Source: a virus
Lineage: Duplodnaviria; Caudoviricetes
IMG/VR virus record: IMGVR_UViG_3300032321_000847
Span: 1-31,957 of that record
DNA length: 31,957 nucleotides
Strand: one strand, 5' to 3'
The notes beneath the pieces are model-generated. The model was not told where the DNA came from. It made no database searches and worked only from the letters and a program-made list of their open reading frames with translations. The translations under genes were made by a program, and so were the position numbers. Shown in pieces: positions 1,783 to 12,720 of the stretch. How positions within the stretch are numbered: position 1 is the stretch's first letter; each line of letters begins with the position of its first letter.

Positions 1783-2414
1783 TGACGACGAAGCATGTCT
1801 ACGAGGCGATCACGCAGGTAACCGCCGCGATGTCCAAAGAGGGCATCAGCAAGAGCCGCAACAACGCCGGCCAGAACTACAAGTTCCGCGGCATCGACGA
1901 CGTCTACAACGCGCTCGCGAGCGTCATCAGCGGCGCCAAGCTCTGCATGCTGCCGCGCGTCGTGGCGCGCGACGTGACCGAGAAACCGACCAAGAGCGGC
2001 GGCGTGTCCACGTACGTGGTCGTCACGGTGGAGTTTGACCTCGTGTCCGCGGTCGACGGGTCGGCGCACACGATCCGCACGGCCGGCGAGGCGATGGACA
2101 CAGCCGACAAGGCGACCAACAAGGCGATGTCCGCCGCCATGAAGTACGCGTGCCTGATGGCGTTCCAGATCCCGACCGAGGGCGACAACGACGCAGACGG
2201 CTCGCACCACGAGAAGGCCCCGCGCAAGGCGGCGCCGCTCCCGCCCGCGAACCTCGACGCCATCATGGGCGACATCAACGAGGCCACCGCCATGAAGGCG
2301 CTCATGTCCATCCACGCCGAGGTGCAGGGCCTCCAGATGAGCGACTCGGACCGCTCGCTGGTGCGCGCGGCGCTGTCGGCCAAGCGGGCGAAGCTCGAAG
2401 GGAAGGCGGCGTGA
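1782..2414 (+). CDS. erf: ERF-family single-strand annealing recombinase
   Basis: NYKFRGIDDVYNAL and GEAMDTADKATNKAMSAAMKYA...FQIPTEGDNDAD signatures; SD AGGAGG before ATG 1782. Confidence 0.9.
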   Translation: MTTKHVYEAITQVTAAMSKEGISKSRNNAGQNYKFRGIDDVYNALASVISGAKLCMLPRVVARDVTEKPTKSGGVSTYVVVTVEFDLVSAVDGSAHTIRTAGEAMDTADKATNKAMSAAMKYACLMAFQIPTEGDNDADGSHHEKAPRKAAPLPPANLDAIMGDINEATAMKALMSIHAEVQGLQMSDSDRSLVRAALSAKRAKLEGKAA

Positions 2415-3157
2415 GGCACGCGAGCCGCAAGGTGCTTTACGGCGACATTTCCGCGTCAAAGGGCGCGCTGCTCGCCGTGTGCCCGTTCGCGTTTCGCGAG
2501 GACAGCCCCTGGGTCGAGTCGAAGGGAGAAGCCGCGGAGAAGGGCGACATGTTCCACGACGCCGCTGCCGCGCTCGTGGACGACACGATCCCGAAGGGAC
2601 CGATCAAGAACACGGTCTGGCTGACGCGACGGCTCGTTGCGGCGCGGAAGTGGATCGACGCCAACTACGTGCGCGGCTGGCGCGCCGAGGAGGCTTACGC
2701 GTACGACCCTGAGACGGGGACGAGCACGCTCCTCGGGCACAACATCAAGCGCGCTTACGAGGCTCACGGGCGCAAGCCGCACGAACTCGCCGGCTCGGCG
2801 GACATCGTCATCCCGCCCGCGCTAGGTACGCCGGTCGTGGTGGCCGACTGGAAGACGGGCCGCTTCGTGACTGACTCGGTTTGGGAGCAGATGGGCTGGC
2901 TCTGCCTGTTCGCGGCACGCCACTACAACGTGACCGAGGCCGTCGCCTACGTGCTGCACGTGACCGAGGACGGCGTGACGCAGACCGCGCGCGAGTTCCG
3001 CCGCGACGACCTCAACCGAATCGAGGACGACCTCCGCGCGCAGCTCCGCGCCATCCCCGATGCGTGGCCCACCGATGGCGTCCACTGCGACGCGCTCTAC
3101 TGCCCGGCCCGCGCTGGGTGCGACCTGTACCAACTCCGCAAAGGAACCGCAGCATGA
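2411..3157 (+). CDS. PD-(D/E)XK exonuclease, Cas4/AddB-like with a 1+3 Cys Fe-S motif
   Basis: ISAS...CP, GSADIV, VADWKTG and C-terminal HCDALYCPARAGC; coupled to erf by GTGA. Confidence 0.85.
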   Translation: MRHASRKVLYGDISASKGALLAVCPFAFREDSPWVESKGEAAEKGDMFHDAAAALVDDTIPKGPIKNTVWLTRRLVAARKWIDANYVRGWRAEEAYAYDPETGTSTLLGHNIKRAYEAHGRKPHELAGSADIVIPPALGTPVVVADWKTGRFVTDSVWEQMGWLCLFAARHYNVTEAVAYVLHVTEDGVTQTAREFRRDDLNRIEDDLRAQLRAIPDAWPTDGVHCDALYCPARAGCDLYQLRKGTAA

Positions 3158-3717: not shown

Positions 3718-4053
3718 ATGACCGACCCCAAGTACCTCACCCCCGAGCAGATCGCCGACGAGCTCGGCGTCTCGCTCCGCACCGTCTACCGGCGCCTGGC
3801 CGAGATGGGCGCGGTGCGCATCGGCACGGCGCTCCGCGTGTCGCGACTCGCTCTCAACCGCTGGATCGAAAGGCAACGCGTGTGGCCCGACTCTTTCGCC
3901 GAGGAGGCATCTGGTACGCCTGGGTCCCCGTCCGAGGAGGCGGCACCCGCAAGGTCTCCACGCAGTGCACGGACAAGCGCGCGGCCGAGAAGCGCGCCGC
4001 CGAACTCGAGCGCGAGGCGGTGGATCCGGCCGCCGGCAAAGCCGCTCGTGTGA
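3718..4053 (+). CDS. xis: Excisionase-like winged HTH protein
   Basis: YLTPEQIADELGVSLRTVYRRL...AVRIGTALRVSRLALNRWIE; SD GAGG; immediately upstream of and overlapping int. Confidence 0.85.
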   Translation: MTDPKYLTPEQIADELGVSLRTVYRRLAEMGAVRIGTALRVSRLALNRWIERQRVWPDSFAEEASGTPGSPSEEAAPARSPRSARTSARPRSAPPNSSARRWIRPPAKPLV

Positions 4054-4940
4054 CCGTGGAGGAGATGGCCAACGAGTACATCGAAAGCCGCGCGCGTCGT
4101 GGCCGTGCGTTGGGCACGATGCACCACTACACGGTGAAGCTGTCCAACGTTGTGGCGCTCATGCCGGCGCGCCTGGCCGACGTCGATGCGGTGGCGTGCG
4201 AGCAGTACATCAACATGAGGCGCCGCAAGGTGCAGCAGACCACGATCAAGAAAGAGCTTCGCGCGCTCAAGGCCGTTCTGGTCCACGCGCGGCGACTCGA
4301 CCTGTACGCGAGGGACCCCGATGCCGTCATCCCCGAGCTCGAAGAGACGTACCAGCCTCGGACCCGAGTCCTTTCCCCCCTCGAACTGGTCGCGCTCGTT
4401 CAAGCGCTGCCGAAGGATCGCGCCGCGCACGCGGTGTTTATCGTCGCGACCGGTGCTCGGTGGAACGAGTCCCTGCGCTTCGTCGTGGAGGACATGGACG
4501 AGGGAGGCCATGCTGTTCTCCTGCGCGGTACCAAGACGCGCGCGGCGCATCGTCGAGTGCCAGTTCCCCCCGTACTTCGCGGCGCTCTCTCGTGGGCCGT
4601 ATCCCACCTCGGTCGACCGGTGCGTCCTTGGGCGAACGTACGGCGCGATCTGGCTGCGGCCTGCGCTGGAGTGGCGATGCCACCCGTCACTCCGAACGAC
4701 CTTCGCCGCACCTTCGGCTCCTGGCTCCGAGCCTGGGGAGTGACACCCGACCTCATTGGCGCCGCCATGGGGCACACGACGAGCCGCATGGTGGAGCGAG
4801 TTTACGGGCGCCTGAGTCCCGCCGACCTTGGTGCGCTCATTGAGGCCAGAACCACTGGGCTGCTAATGGGCGGCGAGCCCGCCAAAACCAGCTCAACCGA
4901 GACCACTGGAGACACCGACGATGACCACGAACCCAGCTAG
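3882..4940 (+). CDS. int: Tyrosine integrase
   Basis: N-terminal arm-binding-like beta domain (LFRRGGIWY) and catalytic residues ATGAR, GTKT, NDLRRT (H replaced by N), MGHTT, RVYG. Confidence 0.95.
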   Translation: MARLFRRGGIWYAWVPVRGGGTRKVSTQCTDKRAAEKRAAELEREAVDPAAGKAARVTVEEMANEYIESRARRGRALGTMHHYTVKLSNVVALMPARLADVDAVACEQYINMRRRKVQQTTIKKELRALKAVLVHARRLDLYARDPDAVIPELEETYQPRTRVLSPLELVALVQALPKDRAAHAVFIVATGARWNESLRFVVEDMDEGGHAVLLRGTKTRAAHRRVPVPPVLRGALSWAVSHLGRPVRPWANVRRDLAAACAGVAMPPVTPNDLRRTFGSWLRAWGVTPDLIGAAMGHTTSRMVERVYGRLSPADLGALIEARTTGLLMGGEPAKTSSTETTGDTDDDHEPS

Positions 4941-8768: not shown

Positions 8769-8916
8769 CCTCCTCCTCGTCCTCGGGCCAGATGACGTCC
8801 GCGAGCTTCTCTCCCAGCCTTGCGCCCATGGCCTTCACGAGCGCGAAGGCGCCCACGAGTGCCGCGCGGCGTAGCAGCCGCCCCACGTCGCCCTTCGCGT
8901 GCATCGGTACGAGCAT
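8737..8916 (-). CDS. Small protein with hydrophobic core and acidic tail
   Basis: SD GAGGAGG; TGATG coupling to the lysozyme stop. Confidence 0.6.
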   Translation of the reverse strand: MLVPMHAKGDVGRLLRRAALVGAFALVKAMGARLGEKLADVIWPEDEEEDDDGDEQPQD

Positions 8917-9590
8917 CAGCCCTCCTCGCTCGGCGGGTTGCCAAGGTCGCGCTTCGTCTCCGGCTCCGCGTTGAGGTCTCGCGGGAAGTAGAGCCTGTCG
9001 GGGTCCCAGTCGTTCCGCGCCACGGTCTCCGCGTTCCGGAACAGCAGGCGGTTGCGCACGTTGCGAGGGGCCACGCCGGGGTTGCCCTTCTCGCTCATGC
9101 CGCACTCAACGGCCATCAGGGAGAAGTTGCGGCCGCGCTGCGCGGTGTGGAACATTGGCCACGAGAACCCGGGACCGAGCGCCCAGCACATCGACAGGAT
9201 GCCGAGCTGCGCGTCAGCGGGGAACGCGTTCGCGTCAGGGAAGCGCGCGCTGTAGTGCGCCCACATCTGGTCTGCCTTGCTCGTCACGAGCCGGCGCACG
9301 TCGGCGTCGGCGAGCCTGAGGCGCGTGATGTGCTCGCACGCGCGGTGCCCCAGGCGCGCGAGGCTCTTGTCGTTCTTCACTCGCATCCACTCGGCGGTGA
9401 TGTCCGCGTTGGACGCGCGCTTGCCGGTGCCCTTGTCCACCCACGGTAGCGGCAGCGCGTAGGCCACGGGGTCTACGAGGTTGCCCACTCCGGTGGTGAC
9501 GAGGCCCTTTACGTCCGCGTACATCCACGGGACCACGCCCTCTAGCGGCGCGCTGAAGTCGTAGAACGCATCTCGTACTGCCTGACGCAT
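8916..9590 (-). CDS. Endolysin, T4-lysozyme-like (GH24) muramidase
   Basis: LEGVVPWMYADVKGLVTTGVG has E, D(+9), T(+15), the T4 lysozyme triad spacing; SD AGGAGG before ATG 9590. Confidence 0.85.
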   Translation of the reverse strand: MRQAVRDAFYDFSAPLEGVVPWMYADVKGLVTTGVGNLVDPVAYALPLPWVDKGTGKRASNADITAEWMRVKNDKSLARLGHRACEHITRLRLADADVRRLVTSKADQMWAHYSARFPDANAFPADAQLGILSMCWALGPGFSWPMFHTAQRGRNFSLMAVECGMSEKGNPGVAPRNVRNRLLFRNAETVARNDWDPDRLYFPRDLNAEPETKRDLGNPPSEEG

Positions 9591-9601
9591 CGTGCCTCCT
9601 G

Positions 9602-9784
9602 TCAGCAAACCCGCCACGCGAACCGGATCAACTCCTGCAACGCCTCCATCGGCGTCGCCCCTGCCGCGAGGTGCGGCACCCGTAGAGACGCCGTCGTGCA
9701 CGTCCACCCGTCTGCGGTGGCGGTCCACGTCAGCCTGCGAAGGCCAAGTAGATCCGCCTCGTAGAGCAGGTCCGCAAGGGTCAC
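9602..9784 (-). CDS. Small hypothetical protein (weak HicB-N-like motif GATPMEAL)
   Basis: GTGA overlap with the upstream gene; 60 aa. Confidence 0.5.
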   Translation of the reverse strand: MTLADLLYEADLLGLRRLTWTATADGWTCTTASLRVPHLAAGATPMEALQELIRFAWRVC

Positions 9785-9948
9785 GAGCCTACGATGTCGC
9801 GGCGGGCGTCCTCGTCGATGGCCGCGCGGATGAGCCTTGCCGCGATGGCCTTCTCCTGCTCCGGGTCGCGATTCGGCTCGCGCACGTAGCGGTACAGGTC
9901 GAACAGTGGGCCAGCGATGCCGGCGAGGAATCCAAGGAAGTCGCTCAT
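9781..9948 (-). CDS. Small hypothetical protein (MSDFLGFLAGIAGPLFDLYRY...), possible lysis accessory
   Basis: Read from the sequence (55 aa); SD GGAGG; ATGA overlap with the MTase stop. Confidence 0.65.
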   Translation of the reverse strand: MSDFLGFLAGIAGPLFDLYRYVREPNRDPEQEKAIAARLIRAAIDEDARRDIVGS

Positions 9949-11519
9949 GCTGCCTCCAGTCTGCGCTTTGCAATCTCGACGAAGTCCGGCTCGCGCTCGA
10001 TGCCGACGACGGCGGGCCAGCCTGCGCGCAGCGCGCCGATCATCTCCGAGCCCGAGCCCGCGAACGGCACAAGGATCGCGCCCGGCTGCGGCGGCATGAT
10101 GAGCCGCGCAAGGTACTCGCAGAGCGCGAGCGGCTTGACCGTCGGGTGATGGTTGCGCATCGGGCGACGTTCCGGCTCGCGACCCATGCGCAGATCGGGA
10201 AGCGTCCCGTAGCCGTGCGCTTCACTCGACGCCTTCGCGGGCAGCCCCTCGCAGCCGGCGTCGCGCTCGCTTCGCGAAGCCTTCGCGCAGTAGAAGAAGC
10301 GAGAGGCGCCGCCACCTTGGAGCACGACGCGTTCGCGCCCGTCCCATCCTGACGTCCCGCCGTTGTATCCGATCGAACCGTTCGCGCGTGCGGGGCGTTC
10401 GCCGGGGCGCCGCTCCCCCGCCTGCTCGTCCAGCGCCGCCGCGACTTGGCCGTCGAGGATCACGTTCGCGGGCCAGCGGCCTTGCGATGCTGGTGCAGGA
10501 TGCTCACATTCAACGCATGCGCGGGCCAAAGCATCCCAACTGGCGTGGTGGTCGACACATCGACACGCGTGGCTACGTTCAAGTGCTGCAGCCAGATGGC
10601 TCCTACGAGCGAGAGCATCGTGTCGTGATGCAGGCGGCGCTCGGAAGGCGTCTGGTAGCTGGCGAAGCAGTTCACCACCGTAACGGCGACAAGACGGACA
10701 ATCGCCTAGAGAACCTGGAACTAACGACGAGCAGTGAGCACACGCGGCTGCACTGGCAGAACGGTGAGCTTCGTGCCGCGCACATTCAACGGCCGACCGT
10801 GACGTGCCCGGAGTGCTCGCAGCGCGAGCCGCACTACGCCAAAGGCATGTGCCGGCGCTGCTACAAGCGGTTGCAGATGCGACGCCTGTCTCAGAAGTGA
10901 TTCGCGTCGCATCGATCGCCAGCGCGCCGACGCCCCACCGCGCGACGTTCTGCGCGACCGTGCCGTCGAGCGGCTTGCGCGCGAGGACGTAGGGCTCGTG
11001 CGCGGGCTTTAGCGCGGTGCCGTAGCCGGACCAGAGGCGGGCGGCGTCGGTCGCGGGGGCGGTCAGCAGCGTAGAGCAACGCGCATCGTTAGGCTCTCCC
11101 ATCGCGACCGTCGCGGATCTTGACGCTGACCTGACGTAGCCGTCTGGGTTCGGCCTGTAGCCGACCACTTCCCGCTCTGCCCCGGCCGCGTTGTCGATCG
11201 CCTTCGACACGTCCAGCGACTTCGGAAACCCCGAACCGTACATCCAGGCGATCGAGTCGCGGATCTCCCATCCGGCATCCTCGATGCGGCAGACGCCCCG
11301 GTGATAGGTGCGCGTGCCGAACGACGCGAGCAGCGGCGCACCGGGCTTGCACACGCGCAGGACTTCGGCCCAGAGCTCGACCGAAGGGACGTCGTAGTCC
11401 CAGCGCTTGCCCATGAAGGCGAGCCCGTACGGCGGGTCGCAGAGCACCGCGTCGTAGGTGTTGTCAGCGACCGAGCGGAGGACGTCCACCACGTCGCCAA
11501 GGAGCACGCTTGCCGTCAC
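9945..11519 (-). CDS. Phage DNA N6-adenine/N4-cytosine methyltransferase (beta-class motif order) with a ~140-aa insertion
   Basis: CDPPYG near the N-terminus, WMYGSGFPKS, ALKPAHEP, GRWPANV, ASRFFYCAKAS, HPTVKP, and PFAGSGS near the C-terminus. Confidence 0.93.
   Translation of the reverse strand: MTASVLLGDVVDVLRSVADNTYDAVLCDPPYGLAFMGKRWDYDVPSVELWAEVLRVCKPGAPLLASFGTRTYHRGVCRIEDAGWEIRDSIAWMYGSGFPKSLDVSKAIDNAAGAEREVVGYRPNPDGYVRSASRSATVAMGEPNDARCSTLLTAPATDAARLWSGYGTALKPAHEPYVLARKPLDGTVAQNVARWGVGALAIDATRITSETGVASATACSSAGTCLWRSAARAASTPGTSRSAVECARHEAHRSASAAACAHCSSLVPGSLGDCPSCRRYGGELLRQLPDAFRAPPASRHDALARRSHLAAALERSHACRCVDHHASWDALARACVECEHPAPASQGRWPANVILDGQVAAALDEQAGERRPGERPARANGSIGYNGGTSGWDGRERVVLQGGGASRFFYCAKASRSERDAGCEGLPAKASSEAHGYGTLPDLRMGREPERRPMRNHHPTVKPLALCEYLARLIMPPQPGAILVPFAGSGSEMIGALRAGWPAVVGIEREPDFVEIAKRRLEAA
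10487..10900 (+). CDS. HNH endonuclease nested antisense inside the methyltransferase gene
   Basis: HPNWRGG, EHRVVM...LGRRL...VHHRNGDKTDNRLENLEL, and C-terminal CPEC/CRRC. Start is ATG 10487 or 10517. Confidence 0.92.
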   Translation: MLVQDAHIQRMRGPKHPNWRGGRHIDTRGYVQVLQPDGSYEREHRVVMQAALGRRLVAGEAVHHRNGDKTDNRLENLELTTSSEHTRLHWQNGELRAAHIQRPTVTCPECSQREPHYAKGMCRRCYKRLQMRRLSQK

Positions 11520-11752
11520 TTCCCACCCCCAAACCCGTGGCGCCGGTCCACCTCGTCAGCACACCGCGTGTAGACCGCAAGCGACCCTGCATCCTTGCCC
11601 TCGGCCTTGCAGTCAACGAGCTGCTGGCGGTAGACCGCGAGGTCCGCCGCTGCCTTGAGCCTGTCGGCCTGCGTCGGCTGCGAGAGCAGCGAGCAGGACG
11701 TCAGCGCGCCGCCCGTCACGAGCCACGCTAGCGCGAAGCCTGCGAGCCTCAC
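11516..11752 (-). CDS. Lipoprotein, candidate spanin component
   Basis: Signal peptide with lipobox LTS-C; adjacent to a holin-like gene. Confidence 0.65.
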   Translation of the reverse strand: MRLAGFALAWLVTGGALTSCSLLSQPTQADRLKAAADLAVYRQQLVDCKAEGKDAGSLAVYTRCADEVDRRHGFGGGK

Positions 11753-11916
11753 GGGTCCACCTTGGGCGCCTGCGCCACGCTGGGCACGAGCAGCAGGGAC
11801 AGGCCCGCGATGGCCTGCTCCCAGGTCACCTTGCCGAGGTTCAAGGCTACGAGCACGCCGACGAGGGCGATCACGTTGAGCAGAATCGTTAGCTTGTTGC
11901 GGTCAATGCTACTCAT
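11749..11916 (-). CDS. Putative holin (two hydrophobic segments, 55 aa)
   Basis: LTILLNVIALVGVLVALNL and AIAGLSLLLVP segments. Confidence 0.6.
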   Translation of the reverse strand: MSSIDRNKLTILLNVIALVGVLVALNLGKVTWEQAIAGLSLLLVPSVAQAPKVDP

Positions 11917-12211
11917 CGCGATCTCCCCGGGACTCGCGCCCCTCCATGCGGTGTCGGAATGCGAGCAGGTCGCGGATGTCGGACGTGTTCTTGCCCACGA
12001 CCTTCTCAAGCTGCTCGATCGCCTGCTTCATCAGCCCAAGCTCCGAGAGCTTGTCCCTCATGGCGCGCATCTCGACGACGGCCTCGGTGAGTTCCTTCTT
12101 GGCCGAGTCGATGGCTCCGAAGAACGAGCCGAGCCGGAACGTCGCCGCGAGCACGGTCGCCGCCAAGGTGAACAGCGCGCCGACCAGCCACTTCAGGTCA
12201 TCATGTCCCAT
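11909..12211 (-). CDS. Membrane-anchored coiled-coil protein (lysis-associated)
   Basis: N-terminal TM (WLVGALFTLAATVLAATF) followed by heptads. Confidence 0.65.
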   Translation of the reverse strand: MGHDDLKWLVGALFTLAATVLAATFRLGSFFGAIDSAKKELTEAVVEMRAMRDKLSELGLMKQAIEQLEKVVGKNTSDIRDLLAFRHRMEGRESRGDRDE

Positions 12212-12720
12212 CACCACTCCTCCGGTCGTGCGATGGTCGGGTCGACCCACGTGGTCACCTTGGTCGTGGGGCTTCTCGGGTCGCACGACGCAGTCGCGTA
12301 CGGCTCCAGCCGCGCGCCGAGCTTGCGCCCGTCGTCGACCAGTGCCGGAAGCCTGCCGACGTAGCCCGCTTCGCGGAGGTCCTTCACGACGCCATCCAGG
12401 CCGACGCGCACGGCCTTACCGGTGCAGCCCGCCACGGACTCGCTGCCAGGCTTCCAGGGGTCGACCTCGGCAGCGCCGAAGATGACCGCGTCATGCGCCG
12501 GGATGAGGTGCCGCGTGCACGCCTCAGCGAGGCGCTGCGAGCGTGGCTCCTCGTCGACGCGTTGGAGGTACTGCGCGACCGCGGTGCAGACCTGCGCCGC
12601 CACGTGGACGGCGCTGGCGAGCTCGAGGACGCACGCACGCGCGTCGGTGGGGTCCAGCGGCACACGCGGAGGTGTGCAGCCGGCGAAGCATAGAGCCAAG
12701 AGTGCGAGCGCGGCTCGCAT
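12211..12720 (-). CDS. Lipoprotein of unknown function
   Basis: MRAALALLALCFAG-C lipobox; several additional Cys. Confidence 0.7.
   Translation of the reverse strand: MRAALALLALCFAGCTPPRVPLDPTDARACVLELASAVHVAAQVCTAVAQYLQRVDEEPRSQRLAEACTRHLIPAHDAVIFGAAEVDPWKPGSESVAGCTGKAVRVGLDGVVKDLREAGYVGRLPALVDDGRKLGARLEPYATASCDPRSPTTKVTTWVDPTIARPEEW

Follow-up and report, generated by a model that had tools for sequence, protein, structure and literature searches.

An antisense HNH endonuclease gene within the open frame of a phage DNA methyltransferase as a candidate hidden homing cassette

How does an HNH endonuclease gene come to lie, whole and antisense, inside a DNA methyltransferase (MTase) frame with no stop across it, and what keeps both strands open? 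The locus sits on a phage contig of 31,957 nt, the whole stretch of DNA analysed (hereafter the window), which carries terminase and integrase genes and an SU10-like portal and capsid (Pfam, PHROG). From its tyrosine integrase and exonuclease genes the phage appears to be temperate, a lifestyle that would give it the opportunity to encounter, in lysogens, MTase alleles free of the insert. The MTase gene lies tightly packed in a probable lysis module and overlaps each neighbour by 4 nt: its GTG start overlaps the TGA of the upstream gene (GTGA), and its TGA stop overlaps the ATG of the downstream gene (ATGA). A nearby ORF, presumably lysozyme-like by its motif, had no Pfam or PHROG family match. 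The features of the window are:

2150-3157 and 3882-4940, plus strand: PD-(D/E)XK exonuclease and tyrosine integrase (Pfam, PHROG)
8916-9728 and 11516-12720, minus strand: lysozyme-like ORF and small hydrophobic ORFs, flanking the MTase gene
9945..11519, minus strand: beta-class N4/N6 DNA methyltransferase, 524 aa, no internal stop (PF01555, Foldseek)
11427..11438, minus strand: catalytic motif IV DPPY, residues 28-31, intact
10047..10070, minus strand: SAM-binding motif I VPFAGSGS, residue 484
10482..10907, no strand assigned: putative mobile cassette, 426 nt or 142 host codons (T205-Q346), from comparison with insert-free relatives
10899..10907, minus strand: cassette-encoded T-R-I standing in for host C-R-I/V
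10482..10510, plus strand: degenerate promoter-like site inferred from homologues, TTGCGA (10482-10487), 17 nt, CACATT (10505-10510)
10517..10900, plus strand: HNH endonuclease, 127 aa from ATG 10517 (137 aa if from ATG 10487) (PF13392)

The host methyltransferase and the gene on its opposite strand

The initial annotation placed the HNH gene wholly within an uninterrupted MTase frame, and this was borne out: all 524 codons are open, with PF01555 matched in two pieces on one strand and PF13392 on the other. Motif IV (DPPY) precedes motif I (FxGxG), as in beta-class enzymes, and Foldseek matched M.BceJIV and CcrM (E 2.5e-8), PvuII and RsrI. The AlphaFold model has a high-confidence core with beta-class fold matches. 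Confidence is low across the insert (residues about 282-314 score 55-77), which is weak evidence for disorder because the underlying alignment holds no homologues there. The 'VPF' of motif I (D-to-V) was considered as a sign of decay and rejected; VPF[ASC]GSGSE occurs in 78 of the 119 closest protein homologues and is the norm of the subfamily. The window MTase agrees with 98% of 98 conserved columns, as does the median non-carrier (n = 248), and its two deviating columns are subfamily-variable or conservative positions. A tblastn search with it matched 543 phage records, 368 of them mycobacteriophages, and motifs shared with the PopTart and Mantra methylases place it among the PopTart_63/ShiLan_65-type phage methylases, a family defined in the available text of PMC9957025.

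On the plus strand, the HNH ORF matched PF13392 with an E value of 2.7e-13 (49.8 bits, cutoff 24.8), and also 17 PHROG families, 16 of which are labelled HNH. Its HNH_3 core (EHR33, HHRNG53, DNRLENL61, EHTRLH74) is followed by a C-terminal zinc-finger-like segment (CxxC97...CRRC112). In the same-site alignment, H53/H54, N62, H75 and the four cysteines, all invariant, are kept, giving the catalytic His and Asn and the DNA-binding appendage of an HNH_3 homing endonuclease. GC3 in the HNH frame is 0.72. The structure model (mean pLDDT 79.5) had I-HmuI (PDB 1U3E) as its best fold match at E 7e-3, below the usual threshold, and phmmer against the PDB gave 0 matches.

The protein had been described as 127-137 aa, starting just inside QGRW. 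Both lengths are possible, but the likely start is ATG 10517, which would give a leaderless 127-aa product behind its own promoter-like site. This site begins at the first base of the cassette and ends 6 nt before the ATG. At the same offset, Mycobacterium phage MKC-IRE-02 has TAGCTG-17-TACACT-6-ATG and the related locus L193 has TTGCTG-17-TATCAC-6-ATG, while TTGACT-17-TATCTT with a GGAGG ribosome site lies upstream in L404 and TTGATG-17-TAGGGT with AAGGA in L488. A consensus promoter and terminator scan returned 0 sites and left the promoter-like site uncalled, and a loose promoter pattern occurred once in the window against 0.39 expected per shuffled window; the only argument for a promoter here would be positional conservation across homologues. 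The -10 of the window (CACATT) fits 3/6 positions of the consensus, with C for T at the first, whereas TAnnnT is found in MKC-IRE-02, L193 and L404. The window copy of the HNH may be weakly expressed or decaying.

Cassette boundaries and the open host frame

Two sets of insert-free relatives located the edges of the insert. The close relative L505 matches the window through ATC GAT GCG and then diverges, and 31 identical nt resume from GGC CGC TGG. MKC-IRE-02 is identical to phages Batiatus and QueenHazel over 110 nt, breaks at the left position seen in the window and rejoins their sequence at the GRW codons. We therefore set the cassette at 10482-10907, made up of 35 nt of promoter and leader, 384 nt of HNH and 7 nt. 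An alignment with insert-free MTase homologues, which the initial annotation had proposed, thus supplied boundaries. Its placement of the HNH between IDATRI (10916-10899) and GRWPAN (10481-10464) stood, as did the overlap of the HNH TGA (10898-10900) with the Ile codon of TRI; the cassette itself runs further, to 10907, because 'TRI' derives from it. The form xATR is found in 5/14 same-site carriers against 2/257 insert-free proteins (p 3e-6). At the TRI junction of MKC-IRE-02 and L488, the A-T codons are spanned by the TAG that ends the HNH; the window has TCG at that position, and its HNH stops three codons before it, at a TGA.

The distance from [IV]DxxR[IV] to GRWPxN has a median of 36 residues, and 114 of 115 distinct homologous segments measure 5-55, the outlier being a carrier. 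A tolerant, short and variable linker, as the initial annotation had it, is thus confirmed, but the cassette was not added to it: it takes the place of CR[IV] plus a 31-41-residue variable linker in the insert-free relatives compared. The insert is less GC-rich than its flanks, as noted before (0.617 vs 0.694 and 0.713). Read in the host frame, GC at codon positions 1/2/3 is 0.68/0.71/0.46 in the cassette vs 0.67/0.53/0.88 in the 5' flank, which is the signature of antisense coding and upholds the earlier impression that these residues are antisense-derived. The junctions were supported by a second assembly, a 22-kb contig from run X1 (depth 11) that covers 9912-12000 and both junctions with 0 differences; because X1 is possibly the source sample, the contig counts as a second assembly rather than an independent sample. 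Joints in run X3 were considered as evidence of excision and rejected, being short matches of other MTase genes.

Removal of the insert by splicing had been judged absent from its appearance, and all searches agreed. The HNH ORF leaves just 35 + 7 nt of the cassette, Rfam gave 0 matches up to E 5, and the RNA fold of the insert was unremarkable (z 0.24), unlike a group I or II intron. The insert, T205-Q346 and then G, has no N- or C-terminal splice residues, and its host-frame translation had no Pfam match and no HINT domain, unlike an intein.

Whether the open host frame is more than chance was assessed against recoded and free-standing HNH genes. In the phase of the HNH relative to the MTase, a host-frame stop arises at xTT-A, xTC-A or xCT-A. 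The initial annotation counted about three stop-prone sites in the HNH; this was an underestimate, since 14 adjacent-residue pairs could give one. Synonymous re-draws of the window HNH (20,000 trials) left the host frame open in 2-5%, a p of 0.02-0.05 for a copy that was picked for being open. Among 160 distinct HNH cores surveyed (15 in the MTase family, 30 in other long ORFs, 115 free), all 15 of the MTase family keep the host frame open (5 antisense and 10 same-strand, one of these inside an intein). Free HNHs are open in the antisense phase in 5/115 cases overall and in 4/44 at GC>=0.52, a baseline somewhat lowered because 'free' leaves out HNHs enclosed in long ORFs. With the window removed and MKC-IRE-02 added, the antisense cases are 5/5 open vs 4/44 GC-matched free HNHs (Fisher p 6.6e-5), and the product of the synonymous-shuffle probabilities for these five is 3.5e-6; none of them came from searches requiring an open host frame. 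Read in the HNH frame, the cassettes of carriers are 43-45% identical; read in the host frame, 17-26%. These comparisons indicate that the open host frame is under selection, beyond chance, and that the host-frame residues of the cassette appear otherwise unconstrained.

Other carriers and mobility

An antisense HNH with the host frame open was found, at the DNA level, at the same site in L193, L404, L488 and MKC-IRE-02, and at a nearby site, after GRWPPN, in L082. Two of these carriers are cultured or named:

L540:1474-3027: Mycobacterium phage MKC-IRE-02 (PP711298.1), 122-aa antisense HNH inside a methyltransferase
L488:1166-3937: Plastorhodobacter daqingensis CGMCC 1.12750, cultured carrier of a same-site antisense HNH cassette

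GenBank names only a 'methyltransferase' across the MKC-IRE-02 locus and leaves the antisense HNH unannotated. Its MTase stop overlaps the next gene by 4 nt, like that of the window, and it has the cassette boundaries and promoter spacing of the window, but its methylase comes from another clade. The L488 MTase also holds an intein with a same-strand, out-of-frame HNH, and its 924-codon frame is open; a plasmid search with the L488 HNH gave no near full-length match.

Further carriers were sought by pattern and by profile. A protein search with the host-frame insert alone recovered only itself among 8,000 candidates scored. A loose junction-plus-HNH DNA pattern gave chance matches (0/120 loci with an MTase match, one weak HNH match), and of the 5 metagenome loci found with a tight version, L404 alone was real. 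A zinc-finger pattern returned two loci, the contig of L193 again and one unrelated. A profile of the antisense 'shadow', built from 17 sequences (12 of intein origin), gave 364 matches among 1.84 billion representatives. The best 150 of these 364 comprise 31 MTases of the window family, 77 proteins with an intein-like C-terminal motif and 42 left unsorted by the script, many of them resembling intein fragments (Pfam on 61). By site, the MTase shadows among the best 150 of 364 number 11 at that of the window (the window included), 7 after GRWPxN, 8 after GFPK plus 4 uncertain, and 4 unplaced. Proteins found by this profile were ascertained for openness and kept out of the open-frame test; 10 of the 14 same-site carriers are such database proteins, with the HNH inferred from the shadow only. 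Conserved MTase columns are kept at just 76-81% in 5 of the 14.

Several related arrangements were seen on the way. In L525:156-2153 the linker used in the window holds a same-strand HNH in another frame with the host frame open, and the linker slot therefore takes either HNH orientation. Same-strand hidden HNHs lie at other sites of the MTase family in L025, L059, L062, L237, L409, L412, L433 (two), L463 and L542; L542 is Cylindrospermopsis phage Cr-LKS3, and such ShiLan-like genes thus occur outside actinophages. Same-strand, out-of-frame HNHs also lie in C5 and another N4/N6 methyltransferase (L121:2541-4835, L416:1118-2692, L421:1089-3284). Free-standing relatives of the window HNH with a long open antisense frame and no recognised host gene were found at L406:1688-2455 and L081:2373-3149; the antisense frame of L406 is open for 193 codons, and that gene has a strong promoter and ribosome site. 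They are possibly pre-adapted donors or escaped cassettes. S/T-rich inserts of ~130 residues follow an RFF motif in P0163, P0177, P0179, L193 and L057, which are close relatives, and are probably further hidden out-of-frame ORFs. The MTase P0173 has a duplicated middle block ahead of a complete copy, a layout like a circular-permutation intermediate or an assembly artefact. Antisense HNHs in the phase of the window are common in inteins of terminases, AAA ATPases, helicases and clamp-loader-like proteins (L085, L088, L102, L104, L423, L432, L443, L446, L447, L456-L481; P0003-P0151).

On an MTase tree of 262 rows, built with the linker left out, the 14 same-site carriers need 12 changes (shuffled mean 13.8), of which at least 6 are forced by well-supported branches; this is the disjunct distribution on the host tree that marks the ShiLan type. 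Eight non-carriers share a supported clade with the window MTase. In a 28-row subset that we selected, the MTases of the window and of MKC-IRE-02 both fell among insert-free relatives, and a tree joining the two was rejected (p-AU 8e-62), yet their cassettes have common junctions and HNHs that are 45% identical. On the HNH tree, which has few columns and no well-supported branch containing carriers, same-site HNHs cluster (2 changes vs 4.8 shuffled, 0/500) and intein-borne antisense HNHs form a separate cluster. Descent of the cassette from the intein-borne antisense HNHs was considered and is unsupported, the two groups standing apart on this weak tree. Among 50,697 phage records, the insert of MKC-IRE-02 matched none at the DNA level apart from its own, and no near-identical copy of the window cassette was found in other MTases. 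On these sequence comparisons the feature is real, is under selection and has moved on an evolutionary scale.

Competing explanations and known hidden endonucleases

The boundaries, the replaced linker, the recurrence, the open frame, the scattered carriers and the intact HNH and MTase motifs, as read from sequence, point to a selfish homing cassette that needs no splicing, of the published ShiLan 'hidden HNH' kind but antisense, whose nuclease homes while the MTase still works. We consider this reading probable. It keeps the proposal of the initial annotation, a splicing-free antisense parasite with both strands coding, which is supported by the recurrence, the open frame, the lack of an intron or intein signal, the scattered carriers and the undecayed MTase. 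The cassette takes the place of a hypervariable linker, at the protein surface, that joins two conserved MTase blocks, and a weak promoter at its edge would drive a leaderless antisense mRNA for the 127-aa HNH. In a mixed infection or a lysogen, the HNH would nick or cut an MTase allele lacking the cassette, in or close to the IDACR/GRWP blocks; repair across the two conserved flanks would then put the cassette in the position of the native linker, and this swap would remove the HNH target (T replacing C at the junction). The MTase mRNA would be translated straight through, with the 142 antisense-derived residues forming a largely unstructured loop; if the elongated MTase is still functional, copies with host-frame stops would be purged, as we propose. 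A bolder form, to which we give just under an even chance, sees a widespread and active class of self-promoted antisense HNH 'replacement cassettes'. These would be alleles of a hypervariable MTase loop that rebuild the residues they delete (TRI for CRI) and move between distant phage lineages; the enzyme would work with 130-240 antisense-derived residues, and at least three MTase sites would have been colonised independently of the intein-borne HNHs.

Beta-class MTases have their target-recognition region between motifs VIII and X/I. The cassette sits in this region, which would fit a different account: a mobile cassette whose host frame stays open so that translation can run on through the operon (avoiding polarity and preserving the coupling to downstream genes), in an elongated MTase that no longer acts or no longer has its specificity. 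The 4-nt overlaps at both ends of the MTase gene and at the stop of that in MKC-IRE-02, its place upstream of the ORF likened to lysozyme by motif and without a family match, and the methylase being non-essential in related phages (available text of PMC11855218, section 4.1) also speak for it. An inactive MTase would be expected to decay, yet 98% of conserved columns are matched and the AlphaFold core is confident with beta-class fold matches; a recent arrival of the cassette could account for the absence of decay. We regard this account as unlikely. That the HNH is itself dead or decaying, a stranded remnant, silent and immobile, read through by a tolerant MTase, is quite improbable. The C that begins the -10 of the window, against TAnnnT in three other carriers, and the failure to find near-identical copies in other MTases would fit it, but all 127 codons are intact, every invariant catalytic and zinc-ligand residue is kept, the HNH frame has a GC3 of 0.72, and an unselected antisense ORF should gain stops fast (bioRxiv 2025.01.02.630785, section 15 of the available text).

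Excision by an unrecognised self-splicing intron or intein is very improbable. Although 77 of the best 150 of 364 antisense-profile matches have an intein-like C-terminal motif, the 426 nt are wholly accounted for, with no space for a ribozyme core or HINT domain, the Rfam, fold and Pfam results were null, and the conserved R-[IV], which comes from the cassette, would be lost on excision. That nuclease and methylase form an overlapping restriction-modification or anti-competitor pair that has been domesticated, with unmethylated or rival DNA attacked by the HNH and the phage protected by the MTase, is hardly credible. The two are physically inseparable at the locus, and possible domestication is raised in section 4.2 of the available text of PMC11855218, but the cassette is patchy, crosses MTase clades and is absent from 257 homologues. 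The HNH fold also resembles I-HmuI, contrary to a domesticated pair. I-HmuI is a long-site homing nickase.

The favoured reading, a homing cassette without splicing, joins a known group. The ShiLan domain, or 'hidden HNH', was reported in mycobacteriophage DNA methylases by Gosselin et al. 2023 (PMC9957025) and Arsenault et al. 2025 (PMC11855218), and the available text of the latter first described same-strand hidden HNHs in the methylase family of the window and saw recent spread in near-identical ShiLan copies. PopTart gp63 and Mantra gp64 of that same family match the window MTase, and the Mantra HNH is 43% identical to that of the window. Both systems have an HNH with zinc fingers in a second frame, a stop-free host frame, no intron or intein signature, a patchy distribution and an altered host residue at a junction. 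They differ in that the ShiLan HNH lies on the strand of its host, in frame 3 of the mRNA, whereas that of the window is antisense and needs its own transcript, for which the cassette has a promoter-like site and a putative leaderless ATG. ShiLan inserts are found close to the LKP..EP motif, and at the site used in the window the Mantra linker is a normal one of 41 aa; the ShiLan inserts are clean insertions of ~202 codons between two codons with a 195-aa HNH, whereas the window cassette has 142 codons, replaces CR[IV] and the linker, and encodes 127 aa. The words 'antisense', 'opposite strand', 'reverse' and 'orientation' have 0 occurrences in the available text of PMC11855218.

Antisense LAGLIDADG and VSR-like endonucleases occur within non-canonical inteins (bioRxiv 10.1101/2025.01.02.630785, sections 8 and 15 of the available text); there too a nuclease lies on the opposite strand of an open host frame, and there is evidence that homing continues. 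In those inteins, however, protein splicing removes the junk residues, which the window MTase must carry, and the nuclease is LAGLIDADG or VSR-like rather than HNH. Intronless homing is known for the free-standing HNH endonucleases mobE and mobA of T4 and mobE of Aeh1 in nrdA (available text of PMC2988022). Like these and I-HmuI (PDB 1U3E), the window HNH has no splicing element, would spread by gene conversion and has an HNH_3 fold. Insertion into coding genes also occurs among the free-standing HNHs, but according to the available text of PMC2988022 it is intergenic or splits the host into two polypeptides, whereas the window host is one polypeptide. A search that covered few subscription journals and the main text of PMC11855218 turned up no publication describing an antisense HNH that sits in a methylase outside any intein. 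Novelty is nevertheless lower than the initial annotation implied, because the same-strand trick and the antisense endonucleases of inteins are already published.

Judged from sequence, the window therefore appears to hold an antisense form of the 'hidden HNH' already published for its methylase family, a variant that widens the known ways for a homing endonuclease to inhabit a gene without splicing. How a hidden nuclease is expressed is a question left by ShiLan; for the antisense variant, the answer would apparently be an antisense promoter within the cassette and a start codon without a leader. The analysis contributes precise boundaries, a promoter geometry conserved between carriers and, as a test system, a cultured carrier that has cassette-free relatives. 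The MKC-IRE-02 methylase is 94% identical over conserved columns to the cassette-free QueenHazel allele, Batiatus and PopTart are as near to it on the tree as QueenHazel, and all grow on M. smegmatis mc2155; with carrier and cassette-free relatives on one host, homing, expression and tolerance are therefore measurable. Antisense HNH genes of this kind escape annotation, and many MTases in the databases contain antisense-derived junk segments.
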